DNA from: a virus
Reading direction: 5' to 3' (one strand)
DNA: 64,000 nucleotides
IMG/VR virus record: IMGVR_UViG_3300026097_001139
Location: 24,387-88,386 of that record
Position numbers and translations under genes: made by a program. Positions 18,285-57,773 of the stretch are shown here, piece by piece (the first letter of the stretch is position 1; every line of letters begins with the position of its first letter). The notes under the pieces are model-generated. The model was not told the DNA's origin, searched no databases, and saw only the letters and a program-made list of their open reading frames with translations.

Positions 18285-18359
18285 TGGAGCTACGGACAGG
18301 ACTTGCACCTGCATAAAACGGATTTGCAGTCCGTCGCCTAACTGTTCAGCCACCGTAGC
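18285..18359 (-). tRNA. tRNA-Cys (GCA)
   Basis: Acceptor GCTACGG/CCGTAGC, U73, encoded CCA; anticodon arm ACGGA-CTGCAAA-TCCGT; T-loop TGCAAGT. Confidence 0.9.
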
Positions 18360-18363
18360 ATGC

Positions 18364-18437
18364 TGGCACCGGATGACGGAATCGAACCGCCGCCAAGGGT
18401 TTTGGAGACCCCTGTCATACCATTAGACCAATCCGGC
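18364..18437 (-). tRNA. tRNA-Trp (CCA)
   Basis: Acceptor GCCGGAT/ATCCGGT, G73, encoded CCA; anticodon arm GGGGT-CTCCAAA-ACCCT; T-loop TTCGATT. Confidence 0.92.
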
Positions 18438-39997: not shown

Positions 39998-40552
39998 TCA
40001 AAGTCTCCACCAGTTTTCCCAAGGGAACACAATCCACACATCCTCTTCTAATTTGTTTATTGACTCTGCAATATAATTTACATCAAGTGTGTTTTCACTG
40101 GCTTCGTTGTTGTACAACACTGCAACACGCACATTGCGGTTCCATACAGCGTCCCAAGCTTCGGTTTCATTGGGCAAACATGTACTTTGCCAGTCTTGTT
40201 TGATCCAATTCAGCGTGTGCCCTGAATCGTTGATGTCGTCTACAATTAGAATATTTTTTCTATAATGCGGATCCCATCGCGCTCCGATAGTGGCTTGTTC
40301 TTCTGTGGGCACATATCCAAATGCCTCTTCACTCATCCAGCAGTTGGTTTCGCATTCCTCATGGTCACGCAAACTCACTTTAAGTGTTTGCATAGGCACA
40401 TCAAGATAGTGACTTAGCAGTGTTGCAGGAATTAAGCCACCTCGGGTGATCCCTACAATGTAGTCAGGCAGCCATCCATCTGCTTGAATTTGTCTGGCAA
40501 TCTCCAAGCATTGCCCTGTGACGTCTTGGAAATTTGTGTGTAGTTTTTTCAT
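39998..40552 (-). CDS. type I phosphoribosyltransferase (xanthine/guanine PRT-like)
   Basis: IVGITRGGLIP, PRPP motif ILIVDDINDSGHT, WIVFPWE; start MKKLHT. Confidence 0.9.
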   Translation of the reverse strand: MKKLHTNFQDVTGQCLEIARQIQADGWLPDYIVGITRGGLIPATLLSHYLDVPMQTLKVSLRDHEECETNCWMSEEAFGYVPTEEQATIGARWDPHYRKNILIVDDINDSGHTLNWIKQDWQSTCLPNETEAWDAVWNRNVRVAVLYNNEASENTLDVNYIAESINKLEEDVWIVFPWENWWRL

Positions 40553-41319
40553 AATTTCTTTGCTTTTACTAGTAGGTGCCAACCAAGATACTCTCTCACA
40601 GCATCTCGCATGATTTCAGGCATTGCTTCAAACCACGGTTCAAGTTCAAACTCGCCTGCTTTGTACTTGCTTACATTATACATGAAACAGTGTGCTTGTC
40701 GCAACCTTTCAATGGTCCATTTATCTGAGTCTAGCAACTGTTCAATCTCGTCATGTGTAAACGCTTCTGCATAAGGACAATCTGCTTGTGCTTCAAACTG
40801 ATCCAGTCCTTTGCGAATCATGGCATATTTCCATGAGTTTTTGGCATACACCATAAATCTAAACTCGCCTGCATCTGCTATTACACTGTGAACATTAGCA
40901 ATGGCTTGATCAATGTCAGGATAATGATGAATCACACCATAGCTGTACACTAGATCAAATTCGCCAAGATCACCTAGATCATCTGTGGCACTGTGATTTA
41001 CAAACCGACCTTCTAGACCTAGCACATCAAATCGTTGCCGGCAGATGTCAAGGCTTTGATCGCTGATGTCTATACCAGTATACTCTGCACCGTGACGTGC
41101 AAACTGTTCTGCATCTGTGCCGATACCGCAACCAACTTCAAGCACACGCTTGCCTCGCCACTGGTGGAAACCAGCAAAATCCAAAATATGTGGTTCTGCT
41201 TTGTATCGTTTTGCAGAAACTTCGTTGAAGTATTCTTCTGTGCCTACAGGCTGGGCACTGTGATTGATGTTACAGGGCTGTGCGTTCCAGTAATCGCGAA
41301 TTTTTTGTTCTATCATCAT
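40549..41319 (-). CDS. class I SAM-dependent methyltransferase
   Basis: VLEVGCGIG, GIDIS, FDLVYSYGVIHH. Confidence 0.9.
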   Translation of the reverse strand: MMIEQKIRDYWNAQPCNINHSAQPVGTEEYFNEVSAKRYKAEPHILDFAGFHQWRGKRVLEVGCGIGTDAEQFARHGAEYTGIDISDQSLDICRQRFDVLGLEGRFVNHSATDDLGDLGEFDLVYSYGVIHHYPDIDQAIANVHSVIADAGEFRFMVYAKNSWKYAMIRKGLDQFEAQADCPYAEAFTHDEIEQLLDSDKWTIERLRQAHCFMYNVSKYKAGEFELEPWFEAMPEIMRDAVREYLGWHLLVKAKKL

Positions 41320-42158
41320 AGTCTTGCCACCTGATTGTTAGGATCAAATTCGCGATCCATTCGTTCCCACGGATCCTGTTCTCCTGAGCATACACGTTCC
41401 CACCAACTCATGTCTCGTCCACGACTGTGCAATAACCATGCAATTTTTTGCGCATCTTCCTGTCTACGAGCATGCCATGTAGGGTGATTGAAATCTCTAG
41501 GATCCTGTGGATTGCCTTCCAGCATAATGCGTTTTTCAAAGGTTTCGTCGCCGTTGTTGCCAGTAAGGTCGTGACGATCATGTGTGACCTCTACGTCTAT
41601 GTTTTTCATTATGTCCAGCATAAACGCAACCTGACTGATCCAAGCATCGTTGATCTGATGCGGACTCAATCTACCAAACAGCAACAGCCAATCTCTGGGT
41701 ACAATAGGAAAGATAGCATACGGATGTTCATTGTGGGTGGGCATGCGCAGGATATTGAATTCACCTGTTTCGTCGGCTATACGTCGATCCCAACCTTGGG
41801 TATGCATGATGGCATCATCATTCCAAAACATGATCCAGTTTGCACTGCTACGCTGTGCAAGTCCACTCACATATTCATTAAGTCTTTCGTAGCCCATTCT
41901 TTGGAATTGAAAGATATGGATCGGCGATTGTTGTGCTTCTAGTTCTGGATACAGGTGTTCTTCGCACCATTTGATAGTTTCTACGTCATCGTCGTCCATG
42001 CCCAGCAGGTACTGAACTCGCAACGGCTCTTCTGCCTTTTCCATCAAACTCAGCAAACTGGTTCGCAGTGCTTCTGTGCGTCCTCTAGTGGGTAGTACCA
42101 CTGCAACATCATAGGGCAAAGGTGCCCACCAGGTGTTTGTGATTTTTTTGTCTGTCAT
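41316..42158 (-). CDS. GT-A fold (GT2-like) glycosyltransferase
   Basis: VVLPTRGR, MDDDD, FWNDD. Confidence 0.78.
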   Translation of the reverse strand: MTDKKITNTWWAPLPYDVAVVLPTRGRTEALRTSLLSLMEKAEEPLRVQYLLGMDDDDVETIKWCEEHLYPELEAQQSPIHIFQFQRMGYERLNEYVSGLAQRSSANWIMFWNDDAIMHTQGWDRRIADETGEFNILRMPTHNEHPYAIFPIVPRDWLLLFGRLSPHQINDAWISQVAFMLDIMKNIDVEVTHDRHDLTGNNGDETFEKRIMLEGNPQDPRDFNHPTWHARRQEDAQKIAWLLHSRGRDMSWWERVCSGEQDPWERMDREFDPNNQVARL

Positions 42159-42166
42159 AGTGTCCT

Positions 42167-42754
42167 TTATTGACTGTTTAGTCTATTCAGTAAATCTTGT
42201 GGCGCTTCCCAGTGCCACTTGGATTTCTGCGGTAGTACATCTCCGCTGGGCATTTTACGCTGTGCATCTGCTCGTGCAGTGTCTTGATCTACTTTACACA
42301 TTGCATCGTTGCGTTCATGCTCGTACACTCGAACACACTCTACATAACAGCGTCCGTTTGTAATCTTGTAGATATAGTGATTGACATGTTCCCAAATAAA
42401 CACACTGCTCATTTCCATGCTTACACCACTGGGTAGCACTCGCAGTGTACCCAGGATGCCTCCTGCTGATGTAAGTTCTTCTGGAATAGTGTTCAATCTT
42501 GGATCATCAGCGGGTAGTACTGTAACGTGATCAAAATAGTATTCCAAAAACTCTTTCACAGGTTTCAATCCACCAAACGGCACAATCCAACCATGTTCGT
42601 CTGGTTCGCCCGCGAATGTGAATTCTACACTTCTGTCATAACCATGCACCTGCGCACAATGTCCTGGCGTGCCGTCTTCGTTGGCATCAAACCATTGTGC
42701 ATGACCGCATGGTAAATTTTTGTATACTTTGGTTGATTTAATCTTAATACCCAT
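42167..42754 (-). CDS. queD: 6-carboxy-5,6,7,8-tetrahydropterin synthase
   Basis: GHAQ, HCAQVHGY, FGGLK..K..L...FDH, SME, VRVYEH..N. Confidence 0.88.
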   Translation of the reverse strand: MGIKIKSTKVYKNLPCGHAQWFDANEDGTPGHCAQVHGYDRSVEFTFAGEPDEHGWIVPFGGLKPVKEFLEYYFDHVTVLPADDPRLNTIPEELTSAGGILGTLRVLPSGVSMEMSSVFIWEHVNHYIYKITNGRCYVECVRVYEHERNDAMCKVDQDTARADAQRKMPSGDVLPQKSKWHWEAPQDLLNRLNSQ

Positions 42755-42781
42755 CTCTTGCCTCCTTGTGAGTAAGTTTGA

Positions 42782-42830
42782 TGGCAGCAGAATCTTTTAA
42801 GTGGGATGACGCCAAGGCCACTAAGTGGAT
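42782..42830 (-). ncRNA. candidate cis-regulatory pseudoknot RNA (preQ1-I-like architecture) upstream of queD
   Basis: P1 AGTGG/CCACT, 13-nt loop CCTTGGCGTCATC, A-rich linker TAAAAGA, P2 TGGCG/TGCCA; between TAAATA (42838-42843) and SD AAGGAGG. Confidence 0.45.
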
Positions 42831-42840
42831 GTGGAGATAT

Positions 42841-43254
42841 TTAGCATCCAGCATCTTCAACTTCAATATCTTCAGGAGCTTTTGTATAGTCTCCTTGACC
42901 GGCTACGCAGTGTCTAATGCCGCCACGTGGATTCTCTGTATCACCGTCTCGGCGCAAGATTAGATGCACATGCGGATACATACAGGTCTGACCGGCACTC
43001 TCGCCCATGTTTATGCCCACATTGTATCCTGTTACAGTGTTTGCATCACTGTCTACATTTTTATTGCCCATTTCTAGTGCATATCTAAAACACTTGTTAA
43101 TTGATGCTAGATCTGCAGATTTTGGCACAACCAGAGTGTGTCCTGGTGTTACAGGAAATCCATCGTTGTATACAACAAAATCAGTGGTATCTAGTACTTC
43201 GTCTGCCCAAGGGGCTCTTCCGTCCGCTTGTGCTCTTTCAAGTGTGTCAACCAT
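42841..43254 (-). CDS. HIT family hydrolase
   Basis: DGFPVTPGHTLVVPK, GYNVGINMGESAGQT, YPHVHLI. Confidence 0.9.
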   Translation of the reverse strand: MVDTLERAQADGRAPWADEVLDTTDFVVYNDGFPVTPGHTLVVPKSADLASINKCFRYALEMGNKNVDSDANTVTGYNVGINMGESAGQTCMYPHVHLILRRDGDTENPRGGIRHCVAGQGDYTKAPEDIEVEDAGC

Positions 43255-43421
43255 TCTTTGCGTTTTCCTTTCATGTCGGGTTTAACTTCTATGTGTTTTA
43301 ATTCACTTAAATGGAAGTCTGGGTTTTGTTCATAGAACTTTTCGCAGGCTTCAATGTGATTGGTTGCTTTGATTCTTTTTGGTGGTCTGCCTTTGGTAAA
43401 AAATATATAAGTGTCAGTCAT
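43191..43421 (-). CDS. hypothetical protein
   Basis: 76-aa ORF; long overlap with HIT gene. Confidence 0.45.
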   Translation of the reverse strand: MTDTYIFFTKGRPPKRIKATNHIEACEKFYEQNPDFHLSELKHIEVKPDMKGKRKEWLTHLKEHKRTEEPLGQTKY

Positions 43422-43728
43422 CGTCCTTGACCAATGAAAAGGTCCCGTTTTCGTTGTCTATCCATTTGAGATTGGTGCCCGGCTTCCAGCCTAGTTCTGT
43501 TAGTAGATGTTCCGGTAGAGGCATGATCAAATCACCATTGTCATCTTCCTCTAGCGTTACAGTGTCAGTGCTAGGTCGTTCTACAACTGTGGCATGCTCT
43601 CCCCACAACTGAGCCTGTTTTTCAGCATCTTCTAGCAAATCGTAGTACAGAATTTCAGGACCTTGTGGGCCTTCTTTGGTTACAAACAAGTAATCATCAT
43701 CAAATGGTACTTTAATTGCGTATTTCAT
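43414..43728 (-). CDS. hypothetical protein with C-terminal AbrB/MazE-like domain
   Basis: GDLIMPLPEHLLTELGWKPGTNLKW. Confidence 0.7.
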   Translation of the reverse strand: MKYAIKVPFDDDYLFVTKEGPQGPEILYYDLLEDAEKQAQLWGEHATVVERPSTDTVTLEEDDNGDLIMPLPEHLLTELGWKPGTNLKWIDNENGTFSLVKDDD

Positions 43729-43964
43729 TCTTGATTATTCTCGTCTTCCCAGCGCATGATAACATTTGAAAATCCCCAGTTCGTGGGGGAATACTCAGAA
43801 ACATATTCTTCCCGAAATTTTATAACTTCATCCATCTGTTCTGCTGTAAGTTCTAAAACATCTTCTACACCGTAGTGCTCGCACAAGTGTTCTTCTAAAC
43901 CTTCTGTGACATCGCGCTCGATATTTTCTTCCCACTTGTGCATTCTTGGCCATTCAAAACTCAT
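43725..43964 (-). CDS. hypothetical protein
   Basis: 79 aa acidic, ATGA overlaps. Confidence 0.65.
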   Translation of the reverse strand: MSFEWPRMHKWEENIERDVTEGLEEHLCEHYGVEDVLELTAEQMDEVIKFREEYVSEYSPTNWGFSNVIMRWEDENNQE

Positions 43965-44056
43965 AATACAAAATCCTGTACAAATCCTAATACGCCTAAA
44001 CTCAGTGCAACAAGTAAAAATACCTGTGCCAATCTTGCCGCAATATAATCACTCAT
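43961..44056 (-). CDS. small membrane peptide (31 aa)
   Basis: MSDYIAARLAQVFLLVALSLGVLGFVQDFVL; ATGA overlaps on both sides. Confidence 0.6.
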   Translation of the reverse strand: MSDYIAARLAQVFLLVALSLGVLGFVQDFVL

Positions 44057-44751
44057 CGTGGTGCAAACTCCTGTTGCAGTTTGATATTGTCCATAAACTC
44101 TTTCTTGGTTGCACTGTCTTCTTTAAACGCACCTTTTAACACTGTGGTTTGTGTAAGACTGCTATGTGCCATAATGCCGCGATTCTCGCAACAACCATGC
44201 GTGGCCTGAATATAAACGCCTACATCTCCCGAGCCAGTGGCGTCCATAATCTCTCGTGCAATGTCCATAGCAAGTTCTTCTTGCAGTGTTCCACGTCGAG
44301 CACACCATTGTGCAATACGAGTGTACTTGCTCAAGCCAATAAGTGTGTCCGCGGCAATAATACCGATATATGCAACACCTGTAACCGGCTGATGATGATG
44401 TGAACACACACTCTTAAGCTCGCTTCGAACTACCAACATACCGTCGTATGCGTCTTCTGTAACATTAGGAAATGCAGTTGCGTTAGGACGAGGATCATAA
44501 CGTCCTTGCATCAGTTCATTTATGTACATCTTGGCAAGTCGACGACCTGTGTCCATGGAGTTAGGATCAGTCTGCCTGTCAATAATTAGTGAATCTAGCA
44601 CACTTTCAAACTTTACGGTAAGTTCGTCAATCAGCAGTTCTTTTTCGCCAGGCTCAATCCACTGGCTAATATTGTCTCCAGCCCAGTAACGGCCGTACAT
44701 GTCACCGGCGATGCGGTCTCTAATAGTTGATGAAATAGATTTGTTTGTCAT
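44053..44751 (-). CDS. folE: GTP cyclohydrolase I
   Basis: SVCSHHHQP, IGLSKYTRI, ARRGTLQEEL, ATHGCCENRG, TQTTVLKGAF. Confidence 0.95.
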   Translation of the reverse strand: MTNKSISSTIRDRIAGDMYGRYWAGDNISQWIEPGEKELLIDELTVKFESVLDSLIIDRQTDPNSMDTGRRLAKMYINELMQGRYDPRPNATAFPNVTEDAYDGMLVVRSELKSVCSHHHQPVTGVAYIGIIAADTLIGLSKYTRIAQWCARRGTLQEELAMDIAREIMDATGSGDVGVYIQATHGCCENRGIMAHSSLTQTTVLKGAFKEDSATKKEFMDNIKLQQEFAPR

Positions 44752-44801
44752 TGTTTCTCCGAGTTATAGACGAGGATGTCTCGAACTATATTAACATTAA
44801 T

Positions 44802-44830
44802 ATAGTATGGTATTTAGACAATTTTGTCAA
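44802..44830 (-). promoter_or_regulatory. nested sigma70 plus late promoter for folE
   Basis: TTGACA-17 nt-TACTAT with CTAAATA (44811-44817) inside the spacer. Confidence 0.7.
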
Positions 44831-46763
44831 GTGGGTATTTTTCTTGCGGCCAATGATTAGTTTGATAGGCATAACCATTTTCAATTTGTGGAGTACATGT
44901 GATTTTGGTCTTGATTAGCCCTTGACGACGCAAGTGATACATGTCTAAACTAATTTTTTCCTGTAGATTTTCTGTTCTATCGCTGGTGTTGAGCTTTTCT
45001 TTGAGATTAGTTAGTGCACTTTCTTTGATACTTGGATGTGCTGTAATAACAGTGTGCACTGACTCGTAAAATTCCGGGTCAAACTCTGCTGTTATAGTTA
45101 AAGGATATGAATAAGATGGATCAAAGATTTTGGCTTTTTGCACTTCTAGTAGATTTGGATCCAGTCTTGGTACTAATTTTTTAGCTGTGTTCATAGCCAT
45201 TTTAAAGAACTTGTCTTTATTATTGTAGATAAATCCATAGCTCATGCTGTGAATACCGTGACCTTTTGCACCGCCTTTTAGTGTTTCATTTTCCAAAAGT
45301 TCACCGGTTTTCATATAATGATCTACAACATGGCGTAGACTGTAAAAATGCTTCATCACCCAATCTTGCGTTTGTATCTGAGCCCAGATATCATCATAGA
45401 ATGTTCTAAAATCTATATTGTGAATCTCTCGACAGTATCGTGCAATTACCTGAGTATACCCGGCTGCATGTAATTGAATTATCATCCAAGCATACATATA
45501 GGCATCGATTAATTCATCTCTGGACATTGTGTTAGTAGCAACCACAATTTCCATTTCTTCTTCAATTTCTCGCCAGTCGTCGGGGTGGTACAGTGGATAG
45601 TAATCTTTTACCACCTGTGTTTCGATGCCGTATTTTTGTCGATCTTCTTCAGTACCCAAAGCTGCACCTTTAAGTGTCTGTGCAAACCACATGTCAATAG
45701 CGTTGTGCTGTCCCATTTCTAGAATATCAGCCAAACCCTGCTTCCAACTTTCTAATGTCTCTAAAGGCAGTCCTAGAATAACCTCTGTATAAGTAGGCAC
45801 ACCGGTTCTATCACTGTGTTTCATAATATCGGTCATTTGGTTAATACGCATGTTATCACGCTTAATAGCTTTAAGTGTATCAGGATTCATACTTTGCATA
45901 CTCATTGTAATACCGCGCCCTAGATTGCCTAGTTTTTTTCCAATGTCATATACTACATCTGTGCTGTTTTTTGCGTATTGTAAATTAACAGCCTCTATCT
46001 TGCTTTGGCTAGCAACGTCAACAATGTGTTCTGCTATTTCAACATCTCGCTCTTTGAAAATACCAAAATTTGCATCAGCACAAATCAAATAGCTCACAGG
46101 TTTTCCGATAGCCCAATCTAGATCGGATTTAACTCTTTCTATAGGGAATACTTTGATTTTACTCATGGTCAGTCCTCCCCAGTCGCAGAATGTACAAGAA
46201 TACGGACAGCCTCTATTTGTTTCGAAAGTCATATTCCATTCAGCGCCAGGATTTTCTTCTATCATTTTATCAAACAATCCAATAGTGTAAGGACTAGGAA
46301 AATCAAGATCCTTGATACGTTCTGCTTTGTAAATTGCGTTTACTCGGCCTGTACTGTGGTAATCTTCCAGTAACTGTACAAAACTGACTTCACCTTCGCT
46401 AACGATTACTGAATCAATAAATGGATATTGAATTGGCATATTCACCGAAGACTGTGGTCCACCGAAAATTATTTTACAGTCAGGAAAAGCGTCTTTTACT
46501 GCCTTTGCAGTTGCCAAGCTCCACATTTCATTCCATACATAGCAACTAAAACAGGCAATAGCAGGATGATTCATCTTAGCAACTACCTGTTCCGGCGGTT
46601 CTCTCCGGAATCCTAATCCTGCAAGATTATAGTTATCATTGACAATGTCGAATTGTTGGGCATAAGACCATATACAACCAACACTGTACGGAATCCAATA
46701 AGCTGGTTTACCTCTGACACTTAGACTGTATTGCGCTTGATACAGGTAGATATTACGTTTCAT
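44814..46763 (-). CDS. B12-binding-domain radical SAM protein
   Basis: FSCYVWN, IIFGGPQ, SEGE, ETNRGCPYSCTFCDWG, DANFG, EVILGLPLET. Confidence 0.9.
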   Translation of the reverse strand: MKRNIYLYQAQYSLSVRGKPAYWIPYSVGCIWSYAQQFDIVNDNYNLAGLGFRREPPEQVVAKMNHPAIACFSCYVWNEMWSLATAKAVKDAFPDCKIIFGGPQSSVNMPIQYPFIDSVIVSEGEVSFVQLLEDYHSTGRVNAIYKAERIKDLDFPSPYTIGLFDKMIEENPGAEWNMTFETNRGCPYSCTFCDWGGLTMSKIKVFPIERVKSDLDWAIGKPVSYLICADANFGIFKERDVEIAEHIVDVASQSKIEAVNLQYAKNSTDVVYDIGKKLGNLGRGITMSMQSMNPDTLKAIKRDNMRINQMTDIMKHSDRTGVPTYTEVILGLPLETLESWKQGLADILEMGQHNAIDMWFAQTLKGAALGTEEDRQKYGIETQVVKDYYPLYHPDDWREIEEEMEIVVATNTMSRDELIDAYMYAWMIIQLHAAGYTQVIARYCREIHNIDFRTFYDDIWAQIQTQDWVMKHFYSLRHVVDHYMKTGELLENETLKGGAKGHGIHSMSYGFIYNNKDKFFKMAMNTAKKLVPRLDPNLLEVQKAKIFDPSYSYPLTITAEFDPEFYESVHTVITAHPSIKESALTNLKEKLNTSDRTENLQEKISLDMYHLRRQGLIKTKITCTPQIENGYAYQTNHWPQEKYPLDKIV

Positions 46764-56825: not shown

Positions 56826-57773
56826 TTATAAAGGCATTGGTTTAGCAAGAGTTTGCCCTCCGCGTAATGTGGTTAATTCGCCAGGTGCTGTGCACTCAAT
56901 ATATCCAAGTCCGCTGTTGTGCATGGTTTTGTATATAATGGTGTACCCTAGCTCTTCCAGTATGCGAACCACTTCTCTGCCTGGGGTATAACATCTTTGT
57001 CGCGCTTCTACAAACTGAACAGCAGTTGAATCATCACAGTCATTGAATGTGAAAGCAAGCTTGCCGCCACTGCGTAACAGTGTTATAAATTCCTTGAAGT
57101 ATTTTTCTAACAGTTCAATTGGCCGCAGTTCAAAAAAGTTTGTTACCAAAATTAAGCCAATCTGCTTTGGAGGCAAATCCTGCATCATGGTATCAATATA
57201 CTCAATGGTGTCGGCAAAGCACAATCTACGCTGGTATCGCTTGCCAAACTGTTTTATACCCGGTAGCATGCTGTCCTGATTTGTGTCAACTAGATACAAA
57301 GGATCACAGGCTACCATTTCCCTCATGAAATCACAGGCCTGTGGTCTAAATACCACACCAGGAAATTGCCAATCTGTGATGATGTTGATACGATTTCGCA
57401 CAAGATCATCGAATTCCGGGTCAGTTTCTAAACTGTCCAGTCCTTCTGAACTGTCTTTGTTGTACTGATAAAAATTACTGCTGGCAGTGTAATAGGTGCC
57501 TTCGTGTTCAAGCACTTCCCGGAATACTTCTTCACGCAGTGCTCTAAAATGCAGTGGCAAACGTTTTGCATGCTGTATTGCCGCGCTATAATCACAATCT
57601 ATAGGATGATAGTTGTCCCATTCAATGTTTTCCAACTTGTGCTCTTCTGCAACACTTTCTATCAGATAAACAATTTCTCTCACTCGTTGGTCAGACTCGA
57701 TGCTGTCTATTAGATTAAGATAGGCAACCAGTTTACTTAAACTATGTCGTGCACGTATTCTATCACTAAGCAT
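56826..57773 (-). CDS. methyltransferase-fold protein (degenerate SAM motif)
   Basis: DPLYLVD, LPPKQIGLIL..NFF, LLRSGGKLAFTFND. Confidence 0.6.
   Translation of the reverse strand: MLSDRIRARHSLSKLVAYLNLIDSIESDQRVREIVYLIESVAEEHKLENIEWDNYHPIDCDYSAAIQHAKRLPLHFRALREEVFREVLEHEGTYYTASSNFYQYNKDSSEGLDSLETDPEFDDLVRNRINIITDWQFPGVVFRPQACDFMREMVACDPLYLVDTNQDSMLPGIKQFGKRYQRRLCFADTIEYIDTMMQDLPPKQIGLILVTNFFELRPIELLEKYFKEFITLLRSGGKLAFTFNDCDDSTAVQFVEARQRCYTPGREVVRILEELGYTIIYKTMHNSGLGYIECTAPGELTTLRGGQTLAKPMPL

Follow-up and report, generated by a model that had tools for sequence, protein, structure and literature searches.

A conserved pseudoknot in the leaders of phage queD-like genes, probably a new riboswitch outside the known preQ1-I family

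The leader of a queD-like gene in the window (the whole 64,000-nt stretch of viral DNA analysed here, which belongs to an 88,386-nt IMG/VR record with a CheckV completeness of 25%) contains a real and conserved H-type pseudoknot with covariation in both of its helices. This phage-restricted pseudoknot is probably a new riboswitch outside the known preQ1-I family, and the reading considered rather likely is that positions 42782-42822 (minus strand) form the aptamer of a small-molecule riboswitch that uses a preQ1-I-like fold and turns translation of phage queD ON. Computation establishes the fold, its conservation, its restriction to phages, its tie to queD and the strand that the aptamer shares with an alternative helix over the start region. 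The features generic to riboswitches are present, including a structured and conserved aptamer in the 5′ leader, covarying helices, unpaired nucleotides that do not vary and a steady link to one kind of gene. The motif was not found described in the literature searched.

The leader occupies an intergenic gap of 86 nt (42755-42840, minus strand) with a HIT-family gene upstream, and the features within and around it are collected in the table. The surrounding gene set (39998-46763, minus strand) encodes a B12-binding radical SAM protein (649 aa), GTP cyclohydrolase I, three small ORFs, the HIT protein and the queD-like gene onward, the last being followed by a glycosyltransferase-like ORF (280 aa), a SAM methyltransferase and a phosphoribosyltransferase, with these four genes tightly packed or overlapping. 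No QueC, QueE or DpdA is seen in this set, which from its gene content could represent an undescribed pterin or deazapurine pathway. The remark, made in an earlier reading of the sequence alone, that QueC is missing extends to the record as a whole, as homologues of QueC and of TGT/DpdA were looked for in all 88,386 nt and none were found, in a record that is ~25% complete.

Table. Features of the queD-like leader and its neighbouring genes, in window coordinates
Feature	Position	Strand	Remark
GTP cyclohydrolase I	44053-44751	minus	further upstream
HIT-family gene	42841-43254	minus	upstream of the gap
TAAATA	42843-42838	minus	T4-type late-promoter-like; overlaps TAA stop of the HIT gene; basis: sequence
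Two CCAC tetramers	42834-42831 and 42828-42825	minus	could pair with GUGG of P1
P1 5′ strand AGUGG	42822-42818	minus	partner 42800-42804
Loop CCUUGGCGUCAUC	42817-42805	minus	last base C42805
L1 CCU	42815-42817	minus	family consensus N-C-U
P2 5′ strand UGGCG-U-CA	42807-42814	minus	partner 42782-42789
L2 UC	42805-42806	minus	C42805 = candidate specificity base
P1 3′ strand CCACU	42800-42804	minus	covariation in homologues
L3 UAAAAGAUUC	42790-42799	minus	10 nt; consensus N-W-A-N-A-N-A-Y-U-C
P2 3′ strand UGCUGCCA (UG-C-UGCCA)	42782-42789	minus	also part of alternative helix over start region
Linker UCAAACUUACUCAC	42768-42781	minus	conserved in main subgroup
Shine-Dalgarno (SD) AAGGAGG	42761-42767	minus	outside pseudoknot; basis: sequence
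AUG of queD-like gene	42754-42752	minus	basis: sequence
queD-like / PTPS gene, 195 aa	42167-42754	minus	Pfam PTPS E 6.5e-15; phrog_2389 QueD-like E 6.8e-32

The sequence-only reading had drawn a preQ1-like pseudoknot in this leader, and all of the strings that it quoted are present on the minus strand at 42782-42843, where the UGGCG/UGCCA pairing that it proposed for P2 is possible through four Watson-Crick pairs and one G-U. Its P1, P2 and loop cytosine stand, with some refinement of the drawing: P2 is longer and continues past a U-C mismatch through C42808-G42788 and A42807-U42789, which reduces L2 to the two nucleotides U42806-C42805, and L3 has 10 nt rather than 13. The helices of the window's knot total approximately -10.4 kcal/mol (P1 -4.2, P2 -6.2). 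The single sequence proves nothing by itself, since the minimum free energy (MFE) of the leader (-13.7 kcal/mol) is unremarkable against that of its shuffles (-14.8 ± 2.8, z +0.4). Public sequencing runs were searched for the locus and no RNA run was listed with it.

A protein-based search of IMG/VR provided 34 loci with relatives of the window's QueD (50-83% identity), and a recognisably similar leader is found in 27 of these. The differences among the leaders are compensatory, with P1 occurring as GUGG/CCAC, GAGG/CCUC or GCGG/CCGC (with U-A, A-U or C-G as the middle pair among homologues collected through protein similarity) and the loop-to-tail helix in forms that include UGGCG/UGCCA, AGGCG/CGCCU, AUGC/GCAU, GGCAU/AUGCC and GACGC/GUGUC. 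An additional pair that was absent from the original drawing covaries perfectly (UCA...UCUG versus UCG...UCCG). The family structure is composed of a 5-bp P1 (A-G-N-G-G/C-C-N-C-U), an L1 of N-C-U, an L2 of N-C and a P2 in which a variable helix of 3-8 bp is accompanied by C-G and R-Y pairs, its 5′ strand consisting of the variable helix, then U, then C-R, and its 3′ strand of Y-G, an unpaired C and the variable helix.

Conservation and covariation were looked for in the homologous phage queD leaders, and both are found in three alignments. Among 22 distinct seed aptamers collected by protein homology, 89.1% of cells are paired compared to 74.3% in shuffles and 27-55% in slid controls, with a covariation score of 0.348 versus 0.119 in shuffles, and 81 distinct pattern-derived sequences give 92.8% versus 75.2%, although such shuffle-based statistics overstate significance because the sequences are phylogenetically related. 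As the DNA patterns forced some positions, a second sample was drawn by protein similarity only, and its 50 distinct sequences are paired in 95.0% of cells versus 71.6% in shuffles, a comparison subject to the same overstatement, with compensatory changes in 10 of the 12 pairs, P1 pairs 2 and 4 included. P1 was recovered independently by RNAalifold, and the G-C pair that closes it never varies in any of the three alignments. For the 307 distinct sequences among the matches listed, the R-Y pair is A-U 243 times, G-C 64 times and never a mismatch, with all four combinations permitted by the pattern. The variable P2 helix takes at least 100 distinct sequence combinations and has a mean length of 4.53 bp versus 3.25 ± 0.06 with shuffled partners, again among the matches listed.

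Several of the unpaired positions are also strongly conserved. The second position of L1 is C in every ungapped row (22 of 22 and 48 of 48), and a scan of IMG/VR demanding any other base at this position gave 0 matches. The L2 cytosine that precedes the 3′ strand of P1 is invariant in the samples free of RNA-pattern constraint, and in IMG/VR a non-C base at this position was found in one sequence, on 3 contigs, compared to at least 120 matches with C. In L3, the A residues at positions 3, 5 and 7 and the U-C at positions 9-10 are invariant or nearly invariant. Among the matches listed, the base before the L2 cytosine is U, A or C, with UC the commonest combination (186 of 307), and the first nucleotide of L1 is A in 156, U in 93 and C in 58 of 307. 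The sole non-C variant at the L2 position is a change from C to U (UCACU directly before CCAC) that is identical on the three IMG/VR contigs (L484:1968-2004, L485:7421-7457 and L486:6769-6805) and precedes a queD gene of the type found in the window. Either an altered ligand specificity or a neutral or defective allele could account for this variant.

The motif is widespread in IMG/VR, where three strict DNA patterns, one per P1 variant, gave at least 120 matches each and at least 307 distinct sequences combined, with chance matches estimated at only a few per pattern. A covariance model built from the 22 homologous leaders (R1) scores the window motif at 52.2 bits (E 1e-9), which is the sole significant match in the 64-kb window and in the 88-kb record, and detects a single copy in every one of 100 loci. 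When another QueD subfamily was sampled by protein similarity alone (80 loci) and R1 was applied with filters off, the motif was located immediately before the gene in 62, with 2 further copies cut by contig ends; approximately 80% of the genes of that subfamily carry the motif. The closely related queD genes without it, about one fifth of the total (L021, L028-L030, L032-L034 and 16 of L404-L483), have a bare promoter and SD or are translationally coupled to an upstream ORF, and the element is therefore readily gained or lost. A subgroup with P1 AAGG/CCUU and a 7-nt L3 (CUAAUUC), the length of which is nearer to that of the preQ1-I L3, was observed in L406, L409, L424, L436, L443, L449, L457 and L479, where it sits at approximately 340-380 in the full-length loci and at 19-58 in the truncated L436 and scores 17-22 bits with R1.

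The motif is almost confined to uncultured phages. In 185,579 prokaryote genomes (one per species), a tightened pattern for the GUGG variant gave 3 matches, of which 2 are real and the third is a GC-rich chance match. The two real matches (L401:2515-2552 and L403:2961-2997) combine the motif with a queD-like gene on contigs of 5.5 kb and 6.3 kb from GTDB MAGs, a Bacteroidetes bin and a Crocinitomicaceae bin; these contigs are probably phage fragments binned with their host, and may as such serve as host clues. A blastn search of the gene region and leader against 50,697 GenBank phage records gave nothing useful. In the closest cultured QueD homologues, from Pseudomonas phage pf16 and Rhizobium phage RHph_I1_18, queD overlaps the upstream ORF and has no leader, so neither of these phages provides a cultured model.

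The genes that follow the motif connect it to a single enzyme family. Among the matches listed, an ORF starts approximately 20-45 nt past the motif in 298 of 307 sequences, and a Pfam PTPS match was obtained for 140 of 145 sampled downstream ORFs, which fall into approximately seven divergent QueD subfamilies (19-52% identity) with both CxxxHGH and CxxxHGY types. The motif was never found before queC, queE, queF or transporter genes in the sampled loci. The genes located after queD are heterogeneous, with UvdE in 14 of 38 IMG/VR loci, IscA-like Fe-S assembly proteins in 10 and radical SAM proteins in 7, followed in rank by sugar epimerases and methyltransferases, and the families frequent in these 38 loci do not include QueC or TGT. 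As the PTPS ORF is constant and the genes after it are not, QueD itself appears to be the controlled target.

Promoter-like elements are found directly upstream of the motif in many loci, with TAAATA ending 6 nt before GNGG in 26 of 303 loci and a sigma70-like -10 element ending 7-10 nt before GNGG in approximately 90 of the 303, both among the matches listed, and the aptamer is therefore usually at or near the 5′ end of the transcript. In the window, TAAATA ends 16 nt before the GUGG of P1 and, from its sequence, may act as a promoter. A further suggestion of the sequence-only reading, that an upstream CCAC forms a mutually exclusive hairpin with GUGG, was rejected as a family feature: the fold amounts to -2.8 kcal/mol, CCAC repeats between TAAATA and P1 are confined to the window and the two loci most closely related to it (L006 and L009), and other loci often carry a promoter at this place.

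For the expression platform, the SD, whose place outside the knot went unremarked in the sequence-only reading, lies approximately 15-35 nt downstream of the 3′ strand of P2 across loci. In the window, CCAUC (42784-42780) can pair with GAUGG (42755-42751), CUU with AAG, and CUC with GAG of the SD, and in the MFE structure the P2 3′ strand together with AUC pairs with GAUG and the bases after it, CUU/AAG and CUC/GAG(SD) forming the inner pairings. The resulting sequestor hairpin (-10.3 kcal/mol) is similar in strength to the helices of the knot. Across loci, the duplex between UCYG plus the P2 3′ strand plus 4 nt and the region -16 to +12 of the gene has an energy of -8.34 kcal/mol versus -6.15 and -5.73 in shuffles (p 1e-37, n=298), its pairs with the start region are concentrated on -2 to +5, and complementarity past AUC/GAU extends to 3.62 pairs versus 3.15 ± 0.06 (103 sequences). 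The duplex of the window's own aptamer with its ribosome-binding site (RBS), at -10.6 versus -8.2 ± 2.2 kcal/mol, is equalled by 13% of shuffles and is not significant. In ensemble calculations, RBS accessibility is 0.475 with the native aptamer and 0.471 with a shuffled one, showing no difference, and the rise from approximately 0.48 to 0.64-0.65 on blocking the aptamer is therefore a generic effect; swaps with non-cognate aptamers change little. The complementarity of the P2 3′ strand to the start-codon region suggests an ON switch, a reading that is plausible and moderately supported. Should the ligand be a product of the pathway, ON control of a biosynthetic gene would be unusual.

A cmscan search of the 81-nt leader against Rfam 15 at E ≤ 10 gave no family, RF00522 (preQ1-I) included, with the same outcome for locus L020, and the leader was likewise unmatched by preQ1-II (RF01054) and preQ1-III (RF02680) at E ≤ 10. 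The latter two classes are HLout pseudoknots of approximately 77-100 nt, whereas the phage motif is a 45-nt H-type knot. The only Rfam matches at gathering thresholds in the window are two tRNAs, which are adjacent genes at 18288-18437 (minus strand; 62 and 54.9 bits), and permissive searches give chance-level matches. On the 88-kb record, RF00522 gave three weak matches (17.9, 11.6 and 9.6 bits, with a gathering score of 39 bits), none of them at the motif; the first of these (56917-56978, minus strand) lies inside a 315-aa ORF (56826-57773) and was dismissed as chance. Considering that RF00522 finds nothing at the site and no Rfam family matches the leader at E ≤ 10, the description of the element as a variant class, offered from the sequence alone, is a fair one.

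The likeness to preQ1-I raises the possibility of a divergent member of that family, which would bind preQ1 or preQ0 and exert ordinary feedback on the first committed enzyme of the queuosine and 7-deazaguanine pathway. The H-type layout is shared, as the sequence-only reading had recognised, and comprises a small pseudoknot with a 5-bp P1 closed by a conserved G-C pair, a loop that ends in an invariant C, an A-rich L3 and a P2 formed between the loop and the 3′ tail. The P1 sequence (GUGG/CCAC in both, with the phage form GuGG/CCaCu) and the AUAAA with which the tail begins resemble the Rfam PreQ1 consensus, and both elements are linked to preQ0 and queuosine, here through queD, a gene of the preQ0 pathway. 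The cytosine directly before the 3′ strand of P1, which is the equivalent of C17, is preceded by U, A or C in the manner of preQ1-I types I-III, where UC or AC is found at this position (PMC11625349), and the phage motif shares with type I both the UC and a conserved C in the 3′ tail. Type I of Carnobacterium antarcticum binds two stacked preQ1 molecules (PMC11625349). Membership in preQ1-I is nonetheless unlikely given that RF00522 matches neither the leader at E ≤ 10 nor the site in the whole record, and the details of the aptamer differ. The L1 of the phage motif is N-C-U and does not open with the conserved U of preQ1-I (U6), a ligand contact in all class I types (PMC11625349), and it stands in place of the UU motif found atop the P1 5′ strand in type I. 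L3 is longer than in preQ1-I, with 10 nt (7 in one subgroup) and a conserved Y-U-C end of which the U-C is invariant, and P2 is also longer at 5-10 bp, with 2 fixed pairs, a mismatch and 3-8 variable pairs. In addition, SD bases are buried in P2 in all known preQ1-I types (PMC11625349), and P2 of preQ1-I sequesters the SD or a terminator to turn expression OFF, whereas in the phage motif the SD is outside P2 and the complementarity of the P2 3′ strand to the start implies ON. The gene context also differs from that of preQ1-I, with the phage motif standing only before queD/PTPS genes, almost only in uncultured phages, never before queC, queE, queF or transporter genes, and with mostly non-queuosine functions (UvdE, Fe-S assembly, sugar epimerases) encoded after queD.

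Pseudoknots in phage leaders can also serve as protein-binding translational operators, as in the mRNA of gene 32 in T4-like phages, where a knot in the 5′ leader nucleates cooperative binding of gp32. An operator of this kind, through autoregulation by QueD or a phage repressor, would fit the placement of the pseudoknot, with which the leader opens in T4-like and other phages, the strongly conserved loop nucleotides, which a protein could also read, and the association with one gene family only. The comparison extends to the H-type fold, the location at the 5′ end of an mRNA leader in a T4-like phage and the action on translation, but gene 32 has gp32 as its partner and the queD motif spans many phage types. 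A common protein partner is hard to name because the same RNA core precedes all of the divergent QueD subfamilies in phages with very different neighbouring genes; the size and architecture of the motif match known metabolite aptamers, and the invariant C with its natural C-to-U variant recalls the recognition of purine-type ligands, all of which makes a protein operator quite improbable. A constitutive structural element without switching, for instance one that protects the 5′ end from RNases or enhances translation, would be in line with the location at or near the 5′ end of the transcript and with the ensemble accessibility, which shows no specific sequestration by the native aptamer. This explanation is very unlikely, as a stabiliser needs neither the invariant unpaired C, A and U-C nor a strict tie to one enzyme family, and the complementarity between the P2 3′ strand and the start region exceeds that expected by chance.

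For the small-molecule riboswitch, we infer from these features that a ligand is bound, in which direction it acts and of what kind it may be. The aptamer in the 5′ leader of the queD-like (PTPS family) mRNA folds as an H-type pseudoknot, and the ligand, a guanine-like heterocycle of the 7-deazaguanine or pterin type, would be read at its Watson-Crick face by the invariant cytosine of L2. Without the knot, the hairpin of the P2 3′ strand and AUC would cover the SD and AUG, and the ligand-stabilised knot would take the P2 3′ strand away and thereby turn queD translation ON. The more specific proposal of a phage-confined new riboswitch class, which would keep the preQ1-I fold, bind another ligand with a guanine face and switch queD ON by withdrawing the anti-start strand, is put forward tentatively. 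Candidate ligands are 7,8-dihydroneopterin triphosphate, which is the substrate of QueD, or another pterin, and also 7-deazaguanine intermediates such as CDG or preQ0. The rare natural replacement of the specificity cytosine by U hints that ligands of a second kind may be recognised.

If true, this would be a widespread riboswitch restricted to phages, in which a fold like that of preQ1-I serves another expression logic (ON). Phages rarely carry riboswitches, and the literature found describes only glutamine riboswitches of marine phages and, in a cyanophage, a putative riboswitch linked to psbA (PMC9004378). At approximately 45 nt, the element would offer a compact ON-switch scaffold that is easily probed, crystallised and engineered, and a test case of how one small fold diversifies in ligand and wiring. 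QueD is the first committed enzyme toward the 7-deazaguanines, bases that some phages put into their DNA against restriction, and the identity of the ligand would reveal the signal that phages monitor when committing to 7-deazaguanine chemistry.
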